A DNA stretch of 34,172 nt from a virus, in UHGV virus genome UHGV-2104448. One strand, 5' to 3'. Every line of letters starts with the position of its first letter. The first letter of the stretch is position 1. Below the pieces are notes generated by a model, which saw only the letters and a program-made list of their open reading frames with translations, ran no database searches and was not told where the DNA came from. A program made the translations under genes and the position numbers. This document shows, in pieces, positions 4,970 to 34,172 of the stretch.

Positions 4970-5330
4970 GGTAATATTAAATCGGAACATTTACATCGCG
5001 GAATGTAAAATTTAAATAAAAAGGACTCTTCCATGAGCCAAAATTCCTGAAATCTTAAGGGTAAGATAAAAGGTCTTAATCAGAATGACACGTTTTATTA
5101 ATAAATAAAGCTATTCTTTCATTGCTGTGTTTTTCTTTACAAAAGTAATCCTTGCTATGGGTGGTTAATCATGCGTTAATGGTGTTCTGGTTTGTTACAA
5201 ATTTATCTGAAGCAGTCATTGTTATAATTTTATTATTTGTACCTCTTGAGATTTCCTTGTTGGTTTTTCTCTCTGATATTTTTTTCGGACCATTCTGCCC
5301 AAGGGCTAATTTCTTCAAAAGGTAATAATT

Positions 5331-5543
5331 ATGTCTAACAAAATGACTGGTTTAGTGAAATGGTTTAACCCTGAAAAAGGTTTTGGTTTCATCACGCCGA
5401 AAGATGGCAGCAAAGATGTGTTTGTCCATTTCTCAGCAATTCAGAGCAACGATTTCAAAACATTAACTGAGAATCAGGAAGTTGAATTTGGTATTGAGAA
5501 CGGACCTAAAGGTCCTGCCGCTGTTCATGTAGTGGCGCTTTGA
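5331..5543 (+). CDS. cspI: CspA-family cold-shock protein
   Basis: 70 aa with RNP1/RNP2 motifs (KGFGFI, VFVHF). Preceded by a roughly 350-bp AT-rich leader. Paralog assignment is by position after Rz, as in Qin. Confidence 0.8.
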
Positions 5544-5747
5544 GGTAGACAATATTACAAACCATATTCACTTTAGATGCCCGTGTTGTCATGGTTCCCA
5601 GTATAGAACATCATCTTTTGATGTTTCTGACATGAATCCTTTCGGGGCAAAATGTATCTTTTGTAAATCAATGATGATTACATTTGATAATATTTCACAA
5701 TACTTAAATGCCAGCCGTCTGTCGTTGGATTTAAAAAAGTGAAAATG

Positions 5748-22956: not shown

Positions 22957-26358
<3,402 letters not shown>

Positions 26359-26376
26359 ATTTTATAACCCAGAACG

Positions 26377-26402
26377 GGCGTCAGAAATGACGCCTTTTTT
26401 AT
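26377..26402 (+). terminator. Intrinsic terminator after J (GGCGUCA-GAAA-UGACGCC plus U-run)
   Basis: Perfect 7-bp stem with a GAAA loop followed by TTTTTTATT, 19 bp after the J stop. Confidence 0.6.
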
Positions 26403-26424: not shown

Positions 26425-27024
26425 ATGCGTAAACTTTATGCCGCCATTTTGTCCGCAGCCATCTGTCTGGCCGTATCCGGTGCGCCTGCATGGGCGTCTG
26501 AACATCAGTCCACGCTGAGCGCGGGCTATCTTCATGCCTCGACGAACGTTCCCGGCAGCGATGATCTTAACGGGATTAACGTGAAATACCGTTATGAGTT
26601 TACGGACACACTGGGGCTGGTGACGTCATTCAGCTATGCAGGAGACAAGAATCGCCAGCTGACCCGTTACAGCGATACCCGCTGGCATGAAGACTCCGTT
26701 CGTAACCGCTGGTTCAGCGTGATGGCGGGGCCGTCTGTACGCGTGAATGAATGGTTCAGCGCGTATGCGATGGCGGGTGTGGCTTACAGCCGTGTGTCGA
26801 CTTTCTCCGGGGATTATCTCCGCGTAACTGACAACAAGGGGAAAACGCACGATGTGCTGACCGGAAGTGATGACGCTTGCCACAGTAACACCTCTCTGGC
26901 GTGGGGAGCTGGCGTGCAGTTTAACCCGACCGAATCCGTGGCCGTTGATGTCGCTTATGAAGGCTCCGGCAGTGGCAACTGGCGCACTGACGGGTTCATC
27001 GTGGGTGTCGGTTATAAGTTCTGA
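26425..27024 (+). CDS. lom: Lom outer-membrane protein (Ail/Lom/OmpX family)
   Basis: 199 aa with a signal peptide and a beta-barrel ending in the C-terminal Phe (…GFIVGVGYKF). Lambda lom-like. Confidence 0.85.
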   Translation: MRKLYAAILSAAICLAVSGAPAWASEHQSTLSAGYLHASTNVPGSDDLNGINVKYRYEFTDTLGLVTSFSYAGDKNRQLTRYSDTRWHEDSVRNRWFSVMAGPSVRVNEWFSAYAMAGVAYSRVSTFSGDYLRVTDNKGKTHDVLTGSDDACHSNTSLAWGAGVQFNPTESVAVDVAYEGSGSGNWRTDGFIVGVGYKF

Positions 27025-27051
27025 TTAGCCAGGTAACACAGTGTTATGACA

Positions 27052-27077
27052 GCCCGCCGGTTCAGGCGGGCTTTTTT
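27052..27077 (+). terminator. Intrinsic terminator after lom (GCCCGCC stem plus U6)
   Basis: GCCCGCC-GGTTCA-GGCGGGC followed by TTTTTT. Confidence 0.55.
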
Positions 27078-27082
27078 GTGGG

Positions 27083-30000
27083 GTGAATATGGCAGTAAAG
27101 ATTTCAGGTGTACTGAAAGACGGTGCAGGTAAACCGGTACAGAACTGCACAATCCAGCTGAAAGCAAAACGTAACAGCACCACGGTGGTGGTGAACACGC
27201 TGGCCTCAGAAAATCCGGATGAAGCCGGGCGTTACAGCATGGACGTTGAGTACGGTCAGTACAGCGTTATTCTGTTGGTGGAAGGATTCCCGCCGTCACA
27301 TGCCGGGACCATCACCGTGTATGAAGATTCTCAACCCGGTACGCTGAATGATTTTCTCGGTGCCATGACGGAGGATGATGCCCGTCCGGAGGCACTGCGC
27401 CGTTTTGAACTGATGGTGGAAGAGGTGGCGCGTAACGCGTCCGCAGTGGCACAGAACACGGCAGCCGCGAAGAAGTCAGCCAGCGATGCCGGCACATCAG
27501 CCCGTGAGGCGGCAACCCATGCGACTGATGCTGCAGGCTCAGCACGCGCAGCCAGCACGTCAGCCGGACAGGCCGCTTCGTCGGCTCAGTCAGCGTCTTC
27601 CAGCGCAGGAACGGCATCAACAAAGGCCACTGAAGCATCAAAAAGTGCTGCCGCTGCAGAGTCCTCAAAAAGCGCGGCGGCCACCAGTGCCGGTGCGGCG
27701 AAAACGTCAGAAACGAATGCTGCAGTGTCACAAAAATCTGCAGCTACTTCTGCATCCACCGCGACCACGAAAGCGTCAGAAGCTGCCACCTCAGCCCGGG
27801 ATGCGGCGGCCTCAAAAGAGGTAGCGAAATCATCAGAAACGAACGCATCATCAAGTGCCAGTAGTGCAGCTTCCTCGGCAACGGCGGCAGGAAATTCCGC
27901 GAAGGCCGCAAAAACGTCTGAGACGAATGCGGATAACAGCGCACAGGCGGCAGCAGACTCACAAACTGCATCGGCAAACTCCGCGACAGCAGCCAAAAAA
28001 TCAGAAACCAACGCGAAAAATAGCGAGGCAGCAGCAAAGAGCAGCGAAACAAACGCTAAAGCCAGCGAAACTAATGCTAAATCCAGTGAAACAAACGCGG
28101 CGAAATCTGCGGCGGACGCACTTAATTATCGCAACCAGGCCCAGGGTATTGTTGGTACTAACATCGGTTTGGGATCATCACCGCGTGATTGCTCTGACAT
28201 CTCAGGAAATCCATCAGGTTATATTGGCTTTATGCGCATCATGGCTGATGCAACAGGTTTCCCGTCTATTGCATCCGGTGAAAGCAGTCTTACGGGGTTT
28301 ATTAGTCAGGTAGATGGAACTCCAGCGTATACAGGTGTATTTCAGGGATGGACTACTCGCTCGCTTTATACCTATCGCTGGAGTCCGACAACAGGCCCGC
28401 AATGGACACGCCACGCTCGCAAAAATGAAGTGGACCGTCTTGACCAATGGAATAGCGAAACATGGTTATATAACCATGATAAATCCATGCGCCTGGGTTT
28501 AACCGGATCAACATGGGGGTGTTACAGCGACACACAAAAAAAATGGATACCACTTGATGTTTCTCATGGTGGCACTGGCGCAAATAGCCTTGATGACGCC
28601 AAAACTAATTTGCAAATCCCTGAGGGTGGATTAACAAAAGCGATGACCCTTAATGCCCCTGGTGGTGCAGTGGATGGCAAATACTACCCTGTCATAATAG
28701 ACACATCCGCAATGAATGGGAGCGGTGCCATGTTATGTCCTGTTGAAATAAAAACAGCAGGAGGTCCGGCATCAAATCCGCTTAATAGTAACTCATTTTT
28801 TGGGTTCATTCGATGTGGTGGCTGGAGTGACGTTCGCGATGTGGCTTACGGGTCATTTGTTTGCTATGAAAAAAATGAACTCGGGATACTTTGCATTAAA
28901 GCGTCGCAAAGAGATTATGCGCAGCATGTAGCTTTCTACATCCATAAAAGCGCTTTTCCTGTCGTTGTGCAAACTGGCTACAAGGCAAAAGTTAAGGTTC
29001 CAACAGAAGACTACGTAATTGGTGACAACGGGGTTAGATATAAGTTTGGTGTATCAACGTCAACGGAGGATAACGACAAGAACTTTGTTAAAAATGTTCT
29101 TGACTTCACTGGCGGTGAACATGGCTTCTACAGCAACCTTCCGTTCAGACAAGGGGTGTCAGAAAGGATTGCATTAACAAATGGCCTGAGTTTTGACAAA
29201 AATTTTACCGTCACTATTCCTATATTTGTAAACAATGGTCAGATTAAAGCAACACAATCTTTCACCGCGTACGGTACGGACGCTTCAAACAGAACATTTG
29301 TTTCTCAAAGATTACAATCCGAAGGAGGTCCGGTTGTCGATCAAACTGAACTAAGGGCCGCTAACGCTTCTGGTGAAATTGTTGTCAGGGACATAAATAA
29401 TTCAGGGAACAGTAAGTTCTTTAATTTTAACCTTGATGGTACCTTCAGTTCTTATCAGGGATTGGTTGTTCACACAGGGCAAAACTGGAGCACTCAACAT
29501 ACAGAGAATGTAAATAAGTTTAAGCCAATAGCAGGGAGCGCAGGCGGTCCTGACGGAACAATGGTTGTTGGCGGATTCCATGCTCAATTTAGCGGTAATT
29601 ACGTCACACAATTCGCCGGTCGCAACTCCAAATTTTGGGCAAGAAGCTTTGAGGCTGGGGTTGATAAGGGATGGAAACGACTATTAACAGTAGACGATCT
29701 CAATTCATCTACCGATCTTGCTGTCAGGTCATTAACCACATCTAACCCGGTAAAATCTGGCGGAGGGCGGATTGATGTCCTTGGAAGCACGTCAGATTAT
29801 AGCAAAATGGATTGCTTTGTACGTGGGTTTGATAGCACCGGTAATTCTCTCGCGTGGGCGTTGGGTTCATCAGTCGGCGTAAGTAAGATGCTGTCGCTAA
29901 AAAATTTCTTTAGCGGAGCTGAGATACTGTTAAATGGTAATGACGGCGCGGTTCAACTCAAAACAGGTGCTGTTAACGGGGCTAAAGCGCACGCGCTCAC

Positions 30001-30691
30001 TATCAACAAGGATGAGGTTAACTCAACTGTTGATTTAACTCTTACAAAACAAACAGGGACTGGCAATCGTTTTGTTTTACAGAACTTAGGTAATACAGAA
30101 CTATCATTTGCCGCAAAAGTATGGGGATCAAGTGATCGACAAAACGTTTTTGAGGTTGGAACGTCTGCTGCGTATCTGTTTTATGCGCAAAAAACGTCAG
30201 CAGGCCAGTTGTTTGATGTAAATGGCGCTATTAATTGCACAACGCTGAATCAGTCATCAGACCGCGACCTTAAAGACGATATTCTCGTTATCAGCGACGC
30301 GACGAAAGCAATCCGTAAAATGAACGGATACACCTACACGCTCAGGGAAAACGGGATGCCTTATGCTGGCGTTATTGCACAGGAAGTAATGGAGGCGATA
30401 CCAGAAGCTGTAGGATCGTTTACTCATTACGGTGAAGAGTTGCAGGGACCAACGGTTGACGGCAATGAATTACGTGAAGAAACACGTTATCTGAATGTTG
30501 ACTACGCCGCCGTGACGGGGTTACTTGTTCAGGTCGCCCGTGAAACAGATGGTCGCGTTACCGCGCTGGAAGAGGAAAACATAACGCTACGTAAAAATCT
30601 GGCAACAGCAGGCACCCGGATCAGCACTCTGGAAAATCAGGTAAGCGAACTGGTTGCACTTGTCGGGCAGTTAACAGGAAGCGAACATTGA
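27083..30691 (+). CDS. stf: Side tail fibre protein, chimeric: lambda Stf-like N-terminus, divergent distal region, C-terminal intramolecular-chaperone (peptidase S74-like) domain
   Basis: 1202 aa. The N-terminal 130 aa or so (MAVKISGVLKDGAGKPVQNCTIQLKA…) are lambda Stf-like, followed by Ala/Ser-rich SETNA repeats. An HGGTGA fibre motif is present. The last 145 aa or so begin with the S-D-x-x-L-K motif (SSDRDLKDD at about 30254) and end in a coiled coil, typical of self-cleaving intramolecular chaperone domains. Confidence 0.85.
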   Translation: MNMAVKISGVLKDGAGKPVQNCTIQLKAKRNSTTVVVNTLASENPDEAGRYSMDVEYGQYSVILLVEGFPPSHAGTITVYEDSQPGTLNDFLGAMTEDDARPEALRRFELMVEEVARNASAVAQNTAAAKKSASDAGTSAREAATHATDAAGSARAASTSAGQAASSAQSASSSAGTASTKATEASKSAAAAESSKSAAATSAGAAKTSETNAAVSQKSAATSASTATTKASEAATSARDAAASKEVAKSSETNASSSASSAASSATAAGNSAKAAKTSETNADNSAQAAADSQTASANSATAAKKSETNAKNSEAAAKSSETNAKASETNAKSSETNAAKSAADALNYRNQAQGIVGTNIGLGSSPRDCSDISGNPSGYIGFMRIMADATGFPSIASGESSLTGFISQVDGTPAYTGVFQGWTTRSLYTYRWSPTTGPQWTRHARKNEVDRLDQWNSETWLYNHDKSMRLGLTGSTWGCYSDTQKKWIPLDVSHGGTGANSLDDAKTNLQIPEGGLTKAMTLNAPGGAVDGKYYPVIIDTSAMNGSGAMLCPVEIKTAGGPASNPLNSNSFFGFIRCGGWSDVRDVAYGSFVCYEKNELGILCIKASQRDYAQHVAFYIHKSAFPVVVQTGYKAKVKVPTEDYVIGDNGVRYKFGVSTSTEDNDKNFVKNVLDFTGGEHGFYSNLPFRQGVSERIALTNGLSFDKNFTVTIPIFVNNGQIKATQSFTAYGTDASNRTFVSQRLQSEGGPVVDQTELRAANASGEIVVRDINNSGNSKFFNFNLDGTFSSYQGLVVHTGQNWSTQHTENVNKFKPIAGSAGGPDGTMVVGGFHAQFSGNYVTQFAGRNSKFWARSFEAGVDKGWKRLLTVDDLNSSTDLAVRSLTTSNPVKSGGGRIDVLGSTSDYSKMDCFVRGFDSTGNSLAWALGSSVGVSKMLSLKNFFSGAEILLNGNDGAVQLKTGAVNGAKAHALTINKDEVNSTVDLTLTKQTGTGNRFVLQNLGNTELSFAAKVWGSSDRQNVFEVGTSAAYLFYAQKTSAGQLFDVNGAINCTTLNQSSDRDLKDDILVISDATKAIRKMNGYTYTLRENGMPYAGVIAQEVMEAIPEAVGSFTHYGEELQGPTVDGNELREETRYLNVDYAAVTGLLVQVARETDGRVTALEEENITLRKNLATAGTRISTLENQVSELVALVGQLTGSEH

Positions 30692-30865
30692 TATCCTTCA
30701 AGCCCTGAAGGAGGCTGTTCCTGGTACGTTCAGACTGTTGTTGAGCTGGAAATCGCAACGGAGGAAGAAACTTCGTTGCTGGAAGTCTGGAAAAAGTATC
30801 GGGTGTTGCTGAACCGTGTTAATACATCAGTAGTACCGGATATTGAATGGCCAGCACTGCCGTAG
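30692..30865 (+). pseudogene. 3' relic of a tail fibre assembly gene (tfa), no start codon
   Basis: In frame directly after the stf stop: …[44 protein letters not shown]. This is the conserved C-terminal signature of lambda-type Tfa proteins. Confidence 0.6.
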
Positions 30866-30962: not shown

Positions 30963-31553
30963 TTATATGTCAGGTGTCTGAAGTTTTGCTTTGGCTCTTA
31001 AAATGGTTTGCCGCGAGGTTTTGAATTCCCGGGCAATGGCACTTATACTTACACCTGACTTAATTCGTTCGAATACCACCTGTTTCTGTTCTTCATTTAA
31101 CACAGGTGGTCGACCAAAACGTTTCCCTGCGCCGCGGGCTCTTACTATCCCGGAATGAGTGCGTTCAAGTAAAAGGTCTCGTTCAAATTCAGCGACTGCT
31201 GAAATTACTTGCATCATCATTTTTCCTGTTGGACTGGTCAGGTCAATGCCACCCAATGCTAAGCAATGCACTCTGATACCTGTTTCGGTCAGTTGTTCCA
31301 CTGTTTTCCTGATATCCATTGCATTACAACCAAGGCGATCCAGTTTTGTCACAATCAATTGATCACCACATTTCAGGCGAGCAAGCAACCGGTTAAAACC
31401 AGGACGCTCACTGGTTGCTGCTGAGCCGCTAATGTGTTCTTCGATTATTTGCTGAGGTTTGATTTTAAAACCTGCACTTTCGATTTCCCGGCGTTGATTT
31501 TCGGTGGTCTGATCCAGCGTTGATATCCGACAGTAAGCAAAAATTCGAGACAT
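30963..31553 (-). CDS. pinQ: Serine recombinase, Pin/Gin/Hin invertase family
   Basis: 196 aa with the N-terminal catalytic-serine motif (YCRISTLDQ), a resolvase-type catalytic domain and a C-terminal HTH. Convergent with stf. Confidence 0.85.
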
Positions 31554-32888: not shown

Positions 32889-34172
32889 ATGGATTTCCAG
32901 TTATATTCGCTCGGCGCAGCGTTAGTGTTTCATGAAATATTTTTTCCTGAATCATCAACGGCAATGGCGTTAATTCTGGCAATGGGAACCTACGGTGCAG
33001 GTTATGTGGCGCGTATTGTCGGAGCATTTATTTTCGGCAAAATGGGCGACAGAATAGGGCGTAAAAAAGTGCTCTTTATTACCATCACCATGATGGGGAT
33101 CTGTACCACCTTAATTGGTGTGTTACCGACCTATGCACAGATTGGTGTTTTTGCCCCCATCTTGCTGGTGACGCTGCGTATTATTCAGGGATTGGGTGCA
33201 GGTGCGGAAATTTCCGGTGCCGGTACGATGCTGGCGGAATATGCGCCAAAAGGTAAGCGCGGAATTATCTCCTCATTTGTGGCTATGGGAACTAACTGCG
33301 GAACTTTAAGCGCAACGGCAATCTGGGCCTTTATGTTCTTCATTCTCAGTAAAGAGGAACTGCTGGCGTGGGGATGGCGTATACCGTTCCTGGCGAGCGT
33401 TGTCGTGATGGTCTTTGCTATCTGGTTGCGTATGAATCTGAAAGAAAGCCCGGTTTTTGAGAAGGTTAACGACAGCAACCAACCGACAGCAAAACCTGCA
33501 CTTGCTGGTAGCATGTTCCAGAGCAAATCCTTCTGGCTGGCAACAGGGCTGCGTTTTGGTCAGGCGGGTAACTCAGGTTTAATTCAGACTTTCCTTGCGG
33601 GCTATTTAGTGCAGACGTTATTGTTTAACAAAGCAATTCCAACAGATGCATTGATGATCAGTTCGATTCTCGGCTTTATGACCATTCCGTTCCTTGGTTG
33701 GTTATCCGATAAAATTGGTCGCCGGATCCCGTATATTATTATGAATACCTCCGCGATTGTGCTGGCATGGCCAATGCTTTCTATCATCGTAGATAAAAGC
33801 TATGCCCCGAGCACCATTATGGTTGCACTGATTGTGATTCATAACTGTGCGGTGCTGGGATTATTTGCTCTGGAAAATATTACCATGGCAGAAATGTTCG
33901 GCTGTAAAAACCGTTTTACCCGGATGGCTATTTCTAAAGAAATTGGTGGTCTTATCGCTTCCGGTTTTGGTCCTATCCTGGCGGGTATTTTCTGCACCAT
34001 GACGGAATCCTGGTATCCGATCGCCATTATGATCATGGCATATTCAGTGATTGGTTTAATCTCTGCGCTGAAAATGCCAGAAGTGAAAGACCGTGATTTA
34101 AGTGCGCTGGAAGACGCCGCGGAAGATCAACCGCGTGTTGTAAGAGCTGCGCAACCTTCCAGAAGTCTGTAA
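32889..34172 (+). CDS. ydfJ: MFS transporter, N-terminally truncated (host gene at the prophage junction)
   Basis: 427 aa and highly hydrophobic, with the MFS loop motif GKMGDRIGRKKVL. The ORF begins inside what should be TM2, so TM1 is missing, consistent with interruption of the gene by prophage integration. Confidence 0.8.
   Translation: MDFQLYSLGAALVFHEIFFPESSTAMALILAMGTYGAGYVARIVGAFIFGKMGDRIGRKKVLFITITMMGICTTLIGVLPTYAQIGVFAPILLVTLRIIQGLGAGAEISGAGTMLAEYAPKGKRGIISSFVAMGTNCGTLSATAIWAFMFFILSKEELLAWGWRIPFLASVVVMVFAIWLRMNLKESPVFEKVNDSNQPTAKPALAGSMFQSKSFWLATGLRFGQAGNSGLIQTFLAGYLVQTLLFNKAIPTDALMISSILGFMTIPFLGWLSDKIGRRIPYIIMNTSAIVLAWPMLSIIVDKSYAPSTIMVALIVIHNCAVLGLFALENITMAEMFGCKNRFTRMAISKEIGGLIASGFGPILAGIFCTMTESWYPIAIMIMAYSVIGLISALKMPEVKDRDLSALEDAAEDQPRVVRAAQPSRSL

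Follow-up and report, generated by a model that had tools for sequence, protein, structure and literature searches.

A lambdoid prophage side tail fibre with a lambda-type anchor, a T5-like distal region and a predicted self-cleaving S74 chaperone domain

Both the modular exchange of tail-fibre tips and the S74 intramolecular chaperones belong to textbook phage biology. The side fibre of phage lambda depends on a separate protein, Tfa, and has been reported to bind OmpC and the unmodified O16 O-antigen (PMC11990801). The O-antigen is also the primary receptor of the lateral fibres of T5-like phages, and the same has been proposed for Nonagvirus (PMC8594841). Within the S74 family, residues S587 and K592 of MyRF, equivalent to S911 and K916 of endoNF, are essential, and cleavage takes place N-terminal to the serine (PMC8326128). 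Among lambdoid phages, mEp460 is an isolated phage from a study whose phages were confirmed to complete both the lytic and the lysogenic cycle (PMC9836094). Here, we compare with these systems the side tail fibre gene, stf, found in a window of 34,172 nucleotides (virus genome UHGV-2104448). We consider it probable, at about 0.85, that stf encodes a functional side fibre of a lambdoid prophage in which the distal two-thirds are of the T5-like/Queuovirinae type, a self-cleaving chaperone is built in and tfa has mostly been lost. The initial annotation had described a mosaic of three modules, a lambda anchor, a foreign distal region and an S74 chaperone, and the results below support it; the sequence features that it named are all present, at or close to the positions given. 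This reading of the architecture is not new, because the RefSeq name of the product (WP_308218991.1), [quoted passage not shown] already states both domains; the mosaic arrangement is already known and is often met in E. coli. A full-text literature search for experimental studies of S74-bearing lambdoid Stf proteins returned general or related work only. We give the result little weight as a discovery and see some practical value in it.

The stf gene and its genomic context

The features of the locus are collected in Table 1. The gene is one uninterrupted open reading frame, whose 5' end is carried to a GTG at 27083 in the program-made listing; the ATG six nucleotides downstream is the likely start, judging from a product that then opens with MAVKISG, like lambda Stf and like PDB 9e7m. 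It stands in the order J, lom, stf in a prophage of lambdoid type that occupies the Qin/ydfJ site, downstream of a seemingly complete late operon; strain AH04 and another four complete genomes carry it with 100% nucleotide identity. The product matches PHROG 6578 "tail fiber protein" with 1558.6 bits, the best-scoring stretch being residues 473-1189.

Table 1. Coordinates of stf, its modules and its downstream flank in the window
Feature	Position	Strand	Basis or remark
stf, side tail fibre gene	27089..30691	+	1200 codons and TGA stop; RefSeq gives 27089-30691 in identical strain AH04
N-terminal virion-attachment domain, lambda Stf type (aa 1-140)	27089..27508	+	Pfam phage_tail_N; identity to lambda Stf in 9e7m
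Ala/Ser/Thr-rich shaft (aa 141-343), lambda-like at protein level	27509..28117	+	Ala+Ser+Thr content; blastp to orf-401
Conserved joint domain (aa 344-507), first non-lambda module, HGGTGA at its end	28118..28609	+	Homology to PhiR70_1, FritzHoffmann and slur09
Variable distal region, presumed to bind the receptor (aa 508-1056)	28610..30256	+	GC 0.43-0.44; no Pfam family; tblastn relatives
Peptidase_S74 intramolecular chaperone (aa 1057-1200, 15.8 kDa)	30257..30688	+	Pfam, profile and fold matches; predicted cut Ser1056/Ser1057
Ser1057 codon	30257-30259	+	
Lys1062 codon	30272-30274	+	
C-terminal long helix (aa 1139-1197), probable trimeric coiled coil	30503..30679	+	AF2, heptads, coiled-coil matches
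Spacer, stf stop to tfa relic	30692..30727	+	Two substitutions across four lambdoid phages/prophages with S74-type stf (alignment)
tfa relic lacking a start codon (last ~45 codons and stop), same frame as stf	30728..30865	+	Caudo_TAP; tblastn; RefSeq pseudogene

The location could also suggest a different reading, in which stf belongs to a cryptic Qin-like prophage in decay, is intact by chance, has ceased to yield fibres and bears an irrelevant S74 domain. Besides the ydfJ site itself, the right end of the prophage (tfa relic, pinQ, ydfK, ynfT, ydfJ') matches Qin, a cryptic prophage of K-12, at 98.6% identity, and a pseudogenised tfa adjoins stf. This is, however, difficult to reconcile with 1200 uninterrupted codons below a seemingly complete late operon, or with the side tail fibre of the isolated phage mEp460 (AFM76057.1), which is the same gene at 97.8% nucleotide and 98.5% amino acid identity. 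The dN/dS between the two is 0.11 (58 synonymous versus 21 non-synonymous changes), and this codon-level comparison places stf under purifying selection. Because free phages carry the tfa relic too, as part of the cassette, its presence does not point to decay at this locus, and we regard a dead remnant as unlikely.

A lambda-type anchor joined to a foreign distal region

The N-terminus, annotated from the outset as near-lambda, matches Pfam phage_tail_N (PF08400) over residues 3-136 (E 1.8e-71, 238.9 bits, above the cut-off), and 87 of the 94 N-terminal residues resolved in the lambda Stf chain of PDB 9e7m are the same (93%). With its place after J and lom, this match identifies the fibre as a lambda-type Stf. 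Lambda orf-401 aligns with aa 1-343 at 76.6% by blastp, and the nucleotide-level homology detected by blastn stops at aa 281. Beyond aa 343 (from about 28118), blastp found no lambda homology; for lambda orf-314 in particular, there was no specific homology, the sole blastp match being a 24%-identity alignment within the low-complexity shaft. The shaft had been described as Ala/Ser-rich repeats up to about 28100. The composition holds, with Ala, Ser and Thr making up 70.5% of aa 141-340 versus about 25-29% elsewhere in Stf, but the repeats in the strict sense do not: because the only strict tandem array found by TRF spans 28042-28098 (2.7 copies of a 21-nt unit), the shaft is better called low-complexity and degenerate than crisply repeated. 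A PDB sequence search gave weak similarity to two other Ala/Ser-rich shafts, one in T7 gp17 and one in an L-shaped fibre of the T5-like kind.

The change to more AT-rich sequence that had been placed at about 28100 is also seen, GC falling from 0.561 for aa 1-340 to 0.455 for aa 341-1200 and GC3 from 0.503 to 0.394, with the GC3 drop beginning earlier, at about aa 150. Part of the GC step is due to amino acid composition, because the GC excess of the shaft sits at codon position 2, where a value of 0.74 is the source of its high total GC. The mosaic junctions were defined by pairwise blastn and blastp against seven phages and lie near aa 281, 325-343, 359-370, 492-507, 879, 1054, and 1164; by these homology breaks, the mosaic is finer than three pieces.

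The HGGTGA motif pointed out in the AT-rich region occupies aa 493-498 (28565-28582). The joint domain that ends with it is common to PhiR70_1 (95%), FritzHoffmann, and slur09 and is 50-65% identical at the amino acid level to T5-like fibres, and two homology blocks break at aa 492-507. For the variable region that follows, tblastn found relatives in FritzHoffmann (82%), slur09 (74%), and many T5-like and Queuovirinae fibres (32-42%), with 54 phage records spanning at least 80% of aa 508-1056, whereas PhiR70_1 and Ayreon carry other sequence in its place. At the nucleotide level, blastn gave 83% identity to the lateral fibre of the Nonagvirus FritzHoffmann over aa 370-1164 and 74-83% to that of T5-like slur09. 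The homology to T5-like/Queuovirinae fibres covers the joint, the variable region and the S74 end and, with the lack of lambda homology past aa 343, bears out the annotation of the distal region as foreign. Pfam gave no family for three distal sub-regions even at E<=10, leaving aa 137-1056 free of any Pfam family; an NCBIfam search of Stf gave nothing meaningful, and PDB sequence and profile searches gave no match for aa 344-950. The monomer AF2 model of aa 493-1200 (15-sequence alignment, 72-97% identity) had a pLDDT of 36.8 and was unusable, likely because the prediction was monomer-only and the alignment shallow.

We propose that a lateral-fibre module of the T5-like/Queuovirinae kind replaced the distal two-thirds of stf, supplying joint, variable tip and S74 chaperone together. 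The lambda-type domain (aa 1-140) would dock the fibre trimer on the tail tip, the Ala/Ser/Thr-rich shaft would extend the fibre as far as aa 343, and for aa 508-1056 the primary receptor, bound reversibly, would most probably be a surface glycan such as the O-antigen or LPS. That this receptor differs from the one recognized by lambda Stf, as first suggested in the initial annotation, is plausible, since nothing is present of orf-314, the C-terminal part with which lambda Stf binds its receptor. A glycan as receptor class is suggested by analogy with the T5-like lateral fibres; FritzHoffmann was isolated on K-12 lacking O-antigen, which counts against taking glycan binding by this particular tip allele as given.

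The C-terminal S74 domain and its predicted cleavage

The S-D-x-x-L-K motif reported near the C-terminus is SDRDLK (aa 1057-1062, 30257-30274), and the match to Pfam Peptidase_S74 (PF13884) begins exactly there, scoring 47.2 bits versus a cut-off of 22 (E 2.7e-12, profile positions 1-57 of 58). By itself, the bare motif is weak evidence because it arises in 38 of 2000 shuffles of Stf, which does not hold for the Pfam match. Across 17 homologues, down to 36% identity, the lysine is invariant and the serine nearly so; these homologues come from a search with the chaperone domain only and, being short fragments, inform the alignment of the dyad and not the architecture. Profile matches with the dyad aligned were obtained for 6f45, 7dc3, and 3gud. 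The dyad aligns with SSDRRIK in S16 gp37 (E 3e-12), with ADLRAK in MyRF (S587(A)/K592 in the S587A crystal form, 7dc3; E 1e-7), and with SDERHK in GA-1, where residue 1 of the 3gud chain is that serine, the first residue of the released chaperone.

The AF2 model of the chaperone domain (pLDDT 76.5) gave Foldseek matches at a probability of at least 0.9 solely to 7dc3, 4uw8, 3gw6, and 3gud (E 2e-4 to 7e-2); four chains reached E<=0.001, and the next-best others were no better than E 0.88. The TM-scores against solved structures were modest (0.32-0.44 on query) because a trimer-dependent fold was modelled as a monomer. In the same region, AF2 predicts aa 1139-1197 as one long helix (block-mean pLDDT mostly 81-95) with 72% hydrophobic residues at heptad a/d positions versus 40% overall, in agreement with the coiled coil of the initial annotation, which is probably trimeric. 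The profile score, the Ser-Lys spacing of five aligned to proven residues and a fold with a long helix place the domain in the S74 family and uphold its description as a chaperone domain of the self-cleaving type. The outcome that the initial annotation had named as refuting, a missing S74-family match together with a Ser/Lys dyad that fails to align, is thus not what was found.

In the proposed mechanism, the long C-terminal helix would trimerize and template the folding of the preceding fibre, after which the Ser1057/Lys1062 dyad would cut between Ser1056 and Ser1057, freeing a 15.8-kDa fragment and leaving a mature fibre subunit of 110 kDa (predicted products of 15.77 and 110.35 kDa). One could argue instead that the S74-like domain only trimerizes and folds the fibre and stays attached, so that the chaperone domain itself is the tip, given that cleavage of this Stf is predicted rather than observed and that, in work on endoNF, non-cleaving mutants of some homologues reportedly still fold. 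Yet both catalytic residues are kept in position and spacing, here and in the relatives, the GA-1 chain in 3gud begins at the serine, and the members with an intact dyad that have been studied by experiment, including endoNF, GA-1 gp12, and MyRF, all release the domain (PMC8326128). A permanently attached domain is thus very improbable.

The tfa relic, spread of the cassette and comparison with known fibres

The tfa relic matches positions 87-130 of 131 of Pfam Caudo_TAP (E 8.5e-18) and, by tblastn, residues 147-191 of lambda Tfa and TfaQ; tblastn with the same two proteins found no second tfa in the window. The combination of a lambda/T4 gp37-like distal half and a downstream Tfa is absent. 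The junction between stf and the relic is the same in mEp460, Ayreon, and PhiR70_1. The annotated view that this fibre needs no separate Tfa gains indirect support from the reduction of tfa to about 45 codons and from the viable phage mEp460, which is arranged alike; Tfa would be dispensable because the folding help is built in. Most of tfa may have been deleted in the same event that imported the distal module, and the scar left behind is a tidy marker with which to trace the lineage of S74-type fibres. As to reading frame, the match between stf and the relic across the TGA has a one-in-three chance of arising, and an extension made by readthrough would leave with the cleaved chaperone.

Downstream, at a distance of 270 bp and on the opposite strand, an intact serine recombinase gene, pinQ (Resolvase and HTH_7), adjoins the tfa fragment as in invertible segments, which raises the idea of a Pin-type invertible host-range switch like those of Mu, P1, and e14, with pinQ flipping alternative fibre C-termini. 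The inverted-repeat search, on the other hand, gave weak, chance-level pairs only, the best around the fibre region being 25 nt with 72% complementarity within coding sequence; the window holds no alternative fibre C-terminus, and mEp460 has the same fibre but no invertase. A Pin/Gin/Cin-type segment was consequently rejected, and we see hardly any prospect that the tip is switched in this way.

Among 5426 complete E. coli genomes, 810 have the chaperone cassette, behind different tips, and 105 have this variable-tip allele. A broader and tentative scenario, to which we give somewhat less than even odds, is that all lambdoid S74-type side fibres go back to one ancestral replacement, with a T5/Queuovirinae-type distal fibre and its built-in chaperone taking the place of lambda's distal fibre and of three-quarters of tfa, and that the HGGTGA joint and the chaperone domain have since acted as homologous "handles" for swaps of glycan-binding tips between temperate lambdoid and virulent T5-like/Nonagvirus phages. 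The shared junction and spacer in four phages, the homology breaks at aa 492-507 and 1054, and the single cassette with different tips in the 810 genomes are compatible with it. If true, the stf alleles of E. coli prophages would form a catalogue of O-antigen/LPS specificities shared with virulent phages. From a practical point of view, this Stf is a clean natural fusion of a lambda Stf anchor and a chaperone-independent tip, a design type for lambda-based particles with new host ranges, in which the junctions at about aa 343, at the HGGTGA joint and at the Ser1056/Ser1057 boundary mark positions tolerated in nature.

Among the known systems, endoNF, GA-1 gp12, and MyRF (MEROPS S74) have in common with the domain described here Ser-x4-Lys at the domain start, a core of helix and hairpin, a long C-terminal trimerizing helix and a place at the extreme C-terminus, behind a fibre or beta-helix; the sequences are only 14-21% identical, the domain here is attached to a tail fibre and not to a glycosidase tailspike or transcription factor, and its cleavage is a prediction. 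T5-like/Queuovirinae lateral fibres share the GGTGA joint motif, a variable distal region and a C-terminal S74 chaperone, that of the T5 pb1 L-shaped fibre (PDB 4uw8) being a fold match to our model, but the anchor here is lambda-type and the phage temperate. The lateral tail fibres of FritzHoffmann (Bas20) and slur09 are homologous over aa 359-1164, at 74-82% and 52-74% amino acid identity, respectively; FritzHoffmann differs in the last ~36 coiled-coil residues, and slur09 carries an insertion of about 268 additional residues that includes a second GGTGA. Lambda (Ur-lambda) Stf shares with this fibre the attachment domain, the place after J and lom and, as far as aa 343, the Ala/Ser/Thr-rich shaft, whereas its orf-314 distal half and working tfa are both absent here, an intramolecular S74 chaperone apparently standing in Tfa's role. 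In mEp460, the region is colinear over 27000-30851, including the tfa relic, and the J-lom-stf context is alike, whereas the flank past the relic carries DinI-like and integrase genes in place of the Qin-type pinQ/ydfK found here.

A lambda-type anchor joined to a lateral-fibre module

The proposed foreign part takes up the distal two-thirds of one long ORF. Pairwise blastn and blastp comparisons with seven phage loci bear out the mosaic fibre proposed in the initial annotation and show a mosaic finer than three pieces. The N-terminus of the side tail fibre is lambda-like, as claimed: Pfam phage_tail_N matches residues 3-136 (E 1.8e-71), 87 of the 94 N-terminal residues are identical to lambda Stf (PDB 9e7m), and blastp similarity to lambda orf-401 extends to aa 343 (window ~28117). 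At the nucleotide level, homology to lambda runs to aa 281, and beyond aa 343 none is found until the tfa relic, the last ~45 codons of a tail fibre assembly gene. Ayreon and 640R1 share aa 1-325, with homology resuming at aa 879, and PhiR70_1 shares aa 1-507, just beyond HGGTGA, resuming at aa 1054, the chaperone boundary. Homology to the FritzHoffmann (Nonagvirus, Bas20) lateral fibre covers aa 370-1164 (83% nt), and that to T5-like slur09 covers aa 359-449 and aa 492-1161 (74-83% nt); the slur09 fibre carries an additional ~268-aa insert with a second GGTGA between these blocks (L004 3773-4577). The FritzHoffmann fibre (L003 2748-5930) likewise begins with a PF08400 domain, so that the PF08400 plus S74 architecture is not restricted to lambdoid phages. 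Among fibres of T5-like phages, Queuovirinae, and Vequintavirinae, the joint domain (aa 344-507) is reasonably well conserved (aa identity to the T5-like ones, 50-65%), whereas aa 508-1056, for which no Pfam family matched, are much more variable (32-42% identity), which points to the latter as the specificity-determining part.

Two compositional claims held with qualifications. Ala, Ser, and Thr make up 70.5% of aa 141-340, but the repeats include only one strict tandem array by TRF. The AT-rich shift near 28100 is present, aa 1-340 having a GC of 0.561 and a GC3 of 0.503 against 0.455 and 0.394 in aa 341-1200, but GC3 already drops from ~0.58 to ~0.45 near aa 150, within the lambda-homologous part (27509-28108). 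Because the high total GC of the shaft stems from codon position 2 (0.74; Ala/Ser/Thr codons), the visible step at the shaft end is partly amino-acid composition, and a plain GC plot sets the boundary later than a codon-aware one.

Coordinates of stf, its motifs, and neighboring features
Feature	Position	Strand	Residues	Remark
RF01766 cspA thermoregulator	5186-5570	+		inside prophage; 114 bits versus gathering score 78
J	22960-26358			precedes lom and stf
hairpin after J	26376-26395	+		strong, terminator-like, T-run
lom	26425-27024			between J and stf
hairpin after lom	27051-27072	+		strong, terminator-like, T-run; directly 5' of stf
stf ORF	27083-30691	+		single long ORF; 1202 aa if GTG start used
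strict tandem array	28042-28098			in shaft
HGGTGA	28565-28582	+	493-498	
SDRDLK	30257-30274	+	1057-1062	
tfa relic	30728-30865	+		
pinQ serine invertase	30963-31553	-		intact; Resolvase and HTH_7
ydfJ' (MFS transporter)	32889-34172	+		5' end removed by prophage, as in K-12 Qin; ORF continues beyond window end

The C-terminal chaperone domain and its predicted cleavage

Both motifs read from the sequence, HGGTGA and S-D-x-x-L-K, were located, and in keeping with the C-terminal coiled coil, a single long helix showing a heptad pattern is predicted for the final ~60 residues. The proposed Peptidase_S74 domain was found by HMM search, its match beginning at the Ser of SDRDLK (47.2 bits versus a gathering score of 22). 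Across 17 aligned homologues, the most divergent sharing 36% identity, Lys is invariant and Ser and Asp nearly so, and the profile of this alignment, searched against solved structures, aligned the Ser/Lys dyad columns with those of 6f45 (S16 gp37; E 3e-12, SSDRRIK), 7dc3 (MyRF auto-processing domain, S587A crystal form; E 1e-7, ADLRAK), and 3gud (released GA-1 chaperone, chain starting SDERHK; E 8e-4). The two outcomes that would have refuted the S74 reading, a missing family match and an unaligned dyad, did not occur. The AF2 model built for aa 1030-1200 (pLDDT 76.5) reached Foldseek probabilities of at least 0.9 only for 7dc3, 3gud, 4uw8 (the T5 L-shaped fibre with its chaperone), and 3gw6 (endoNF), at E 2e-4 to 7e-2; all remaining matches had E of at least 0.88. 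MyRF is cleaved at P586/S587, S587 and K592 (S911 and K916 in endoNF) being indispensable, and its trimerisation is driven by a C-terminal triple coiled coil (PMC8326128). The profile match, dyad alignment, MyRF mechanism, and fold together predict a cut between Ser1056 and Ser1057, with computed products of 110.35 kDa (mature chain) and 15.77 kDa (released fragment), and we infer that the stf product cleaves itself. Our literature search found no demonstration of self-cleavage in a lambdoid Stf; that the outcome there would be positive is not in doubt.

Genomic setting and integrity of the gene

ATG 27089, two codons after GTG 27083, yields MAVKISG, the N-terminus of lambda Stf in 9e7m, and is also the RefSeq start; we therefore number from it (1200 aa), and the mEp460 GenBank annotation, starting at the equivalent of the GTG, is probably two codons too long. 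The order J-lom-stf, followed by the tfa fragment, pinQ, ydfK, ynfT, and truncated ydfJ, identifies the window as a lambdoid prophage's late region and right end, inserted at the Qin/ydfJ site of E. coli, and the ydfJ truncation confirms the integration site. From 30729 on, the window matches the right end of K-12 Qin at 98.6% identity, the switch from mEp460-like sequence lying close to the 3' end of the relic. A Qin-type cold-shock gene (cspI/cspB-like) presumably has the RF01766 element as its 5' UTR. The hairpins after J and lom, gaps in which rho-independent terminators are annotated in mEp460, suggest that stf expression would depend on antiterminated late transcription.

A decaying prophage remnant could also retain such a gene, but this is unlikely given 58 synonymous against 21 non-synonymous differences from mEp460 (dN/dS 0.11), an identical chaperone domain, a complete-looking late operon upstream, and the status of mEp460 as an isolated lambdoid phage, from a study of phages confirmed for both life cycles (PMC9836094).

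Loss of tfa, receptor, and known relatives

Apart from the relic, the 34-kb window holds no Tfa-like sequence; the relic covers Caudo_TAP positions 87-130 of 131 (E 8.5e-18), corresponds to residues 147-191 of lambda Tfa and TfaQ, lacks a start codon, and is flagged as a pseudogene in RefSeq. mEp460, Ayreon, and PhiR70_1 have its left junction in common. Of the 36-nt spacer 3' of the stf stop, mEp460 has an exact copy, and the other two match it at all but two positions. Because central fibre regions differ among phages sharing this junction, the pattern points to a single ancestral replacement, which introduced the chaperone-bearing tip and removed most of tfa, with later tip swapping between conserved flanks. 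The spacer carries AAGGAGG and a CCTTCA/TGAAGG hairpin, and the relic is in frame with stf beyond the TGA and 12 codons (30692-30865). Readthrough of this TGA might conceivably reach it; spacer and in-frame relic are probably a mere recombination scar. An invertible host-range switch is ruled out, though pinQ is intact, as no flanking inverted repeats, crossover sites, or invertible segment were detected near it and no alternative fibre ends in the window; pinQ appears to be an orphan recombinase that came with the Qin-type right end.

Lambda Stf reportedly binds OmpC and, according to PMC11990801, unmodified O16 O-antigen, and the absence of the lambda distal half makes the same specificity unlikely here. 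T5-like lateral fibres bind O-antigens as reversible primary receptors, as also proposed for Nonagvirus (PMC8594841), and a glycan is our best guess for the imported module, given its membership of this fibre family. For aa 493-1200, AF2 run on the monomer reached a pLDDT of only 36.8, too low to lend this guess structural support.

The initial observation is thus confirmed and its interpretation supported, but the mechanism is ordinary and well understood and the finding already known; the mapped junctions and common tfa scar add minor value. RefSeq names the product 'prophage tail fiber N-terminal domain and S74 family endopeptidase-containing protein', GenBank lists it as the mEp460 side tail fibre, and PHROGs family 6578 matches with 1558.6 bits (best-scoring stretch, residues 473-1189). 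The gene is 100% identical in strain AH04 and four more complete genomes. Among 5426 complete E. coli genomes, 85 carry the full gene (at least 80% coverage), 105 the tip allele, and 810 the chaperone cassette, where it follows a variety of tips, among them that of a 'pyocin knob domain-containing S74 family peptidase'. S74 ends likewise occur on tail fibres of Straboviridae, Markadamsvirinae, Vequintavirinae, and Queuovirinae (PMC12143355) and on Stx-phage fibres (PMC4122784).
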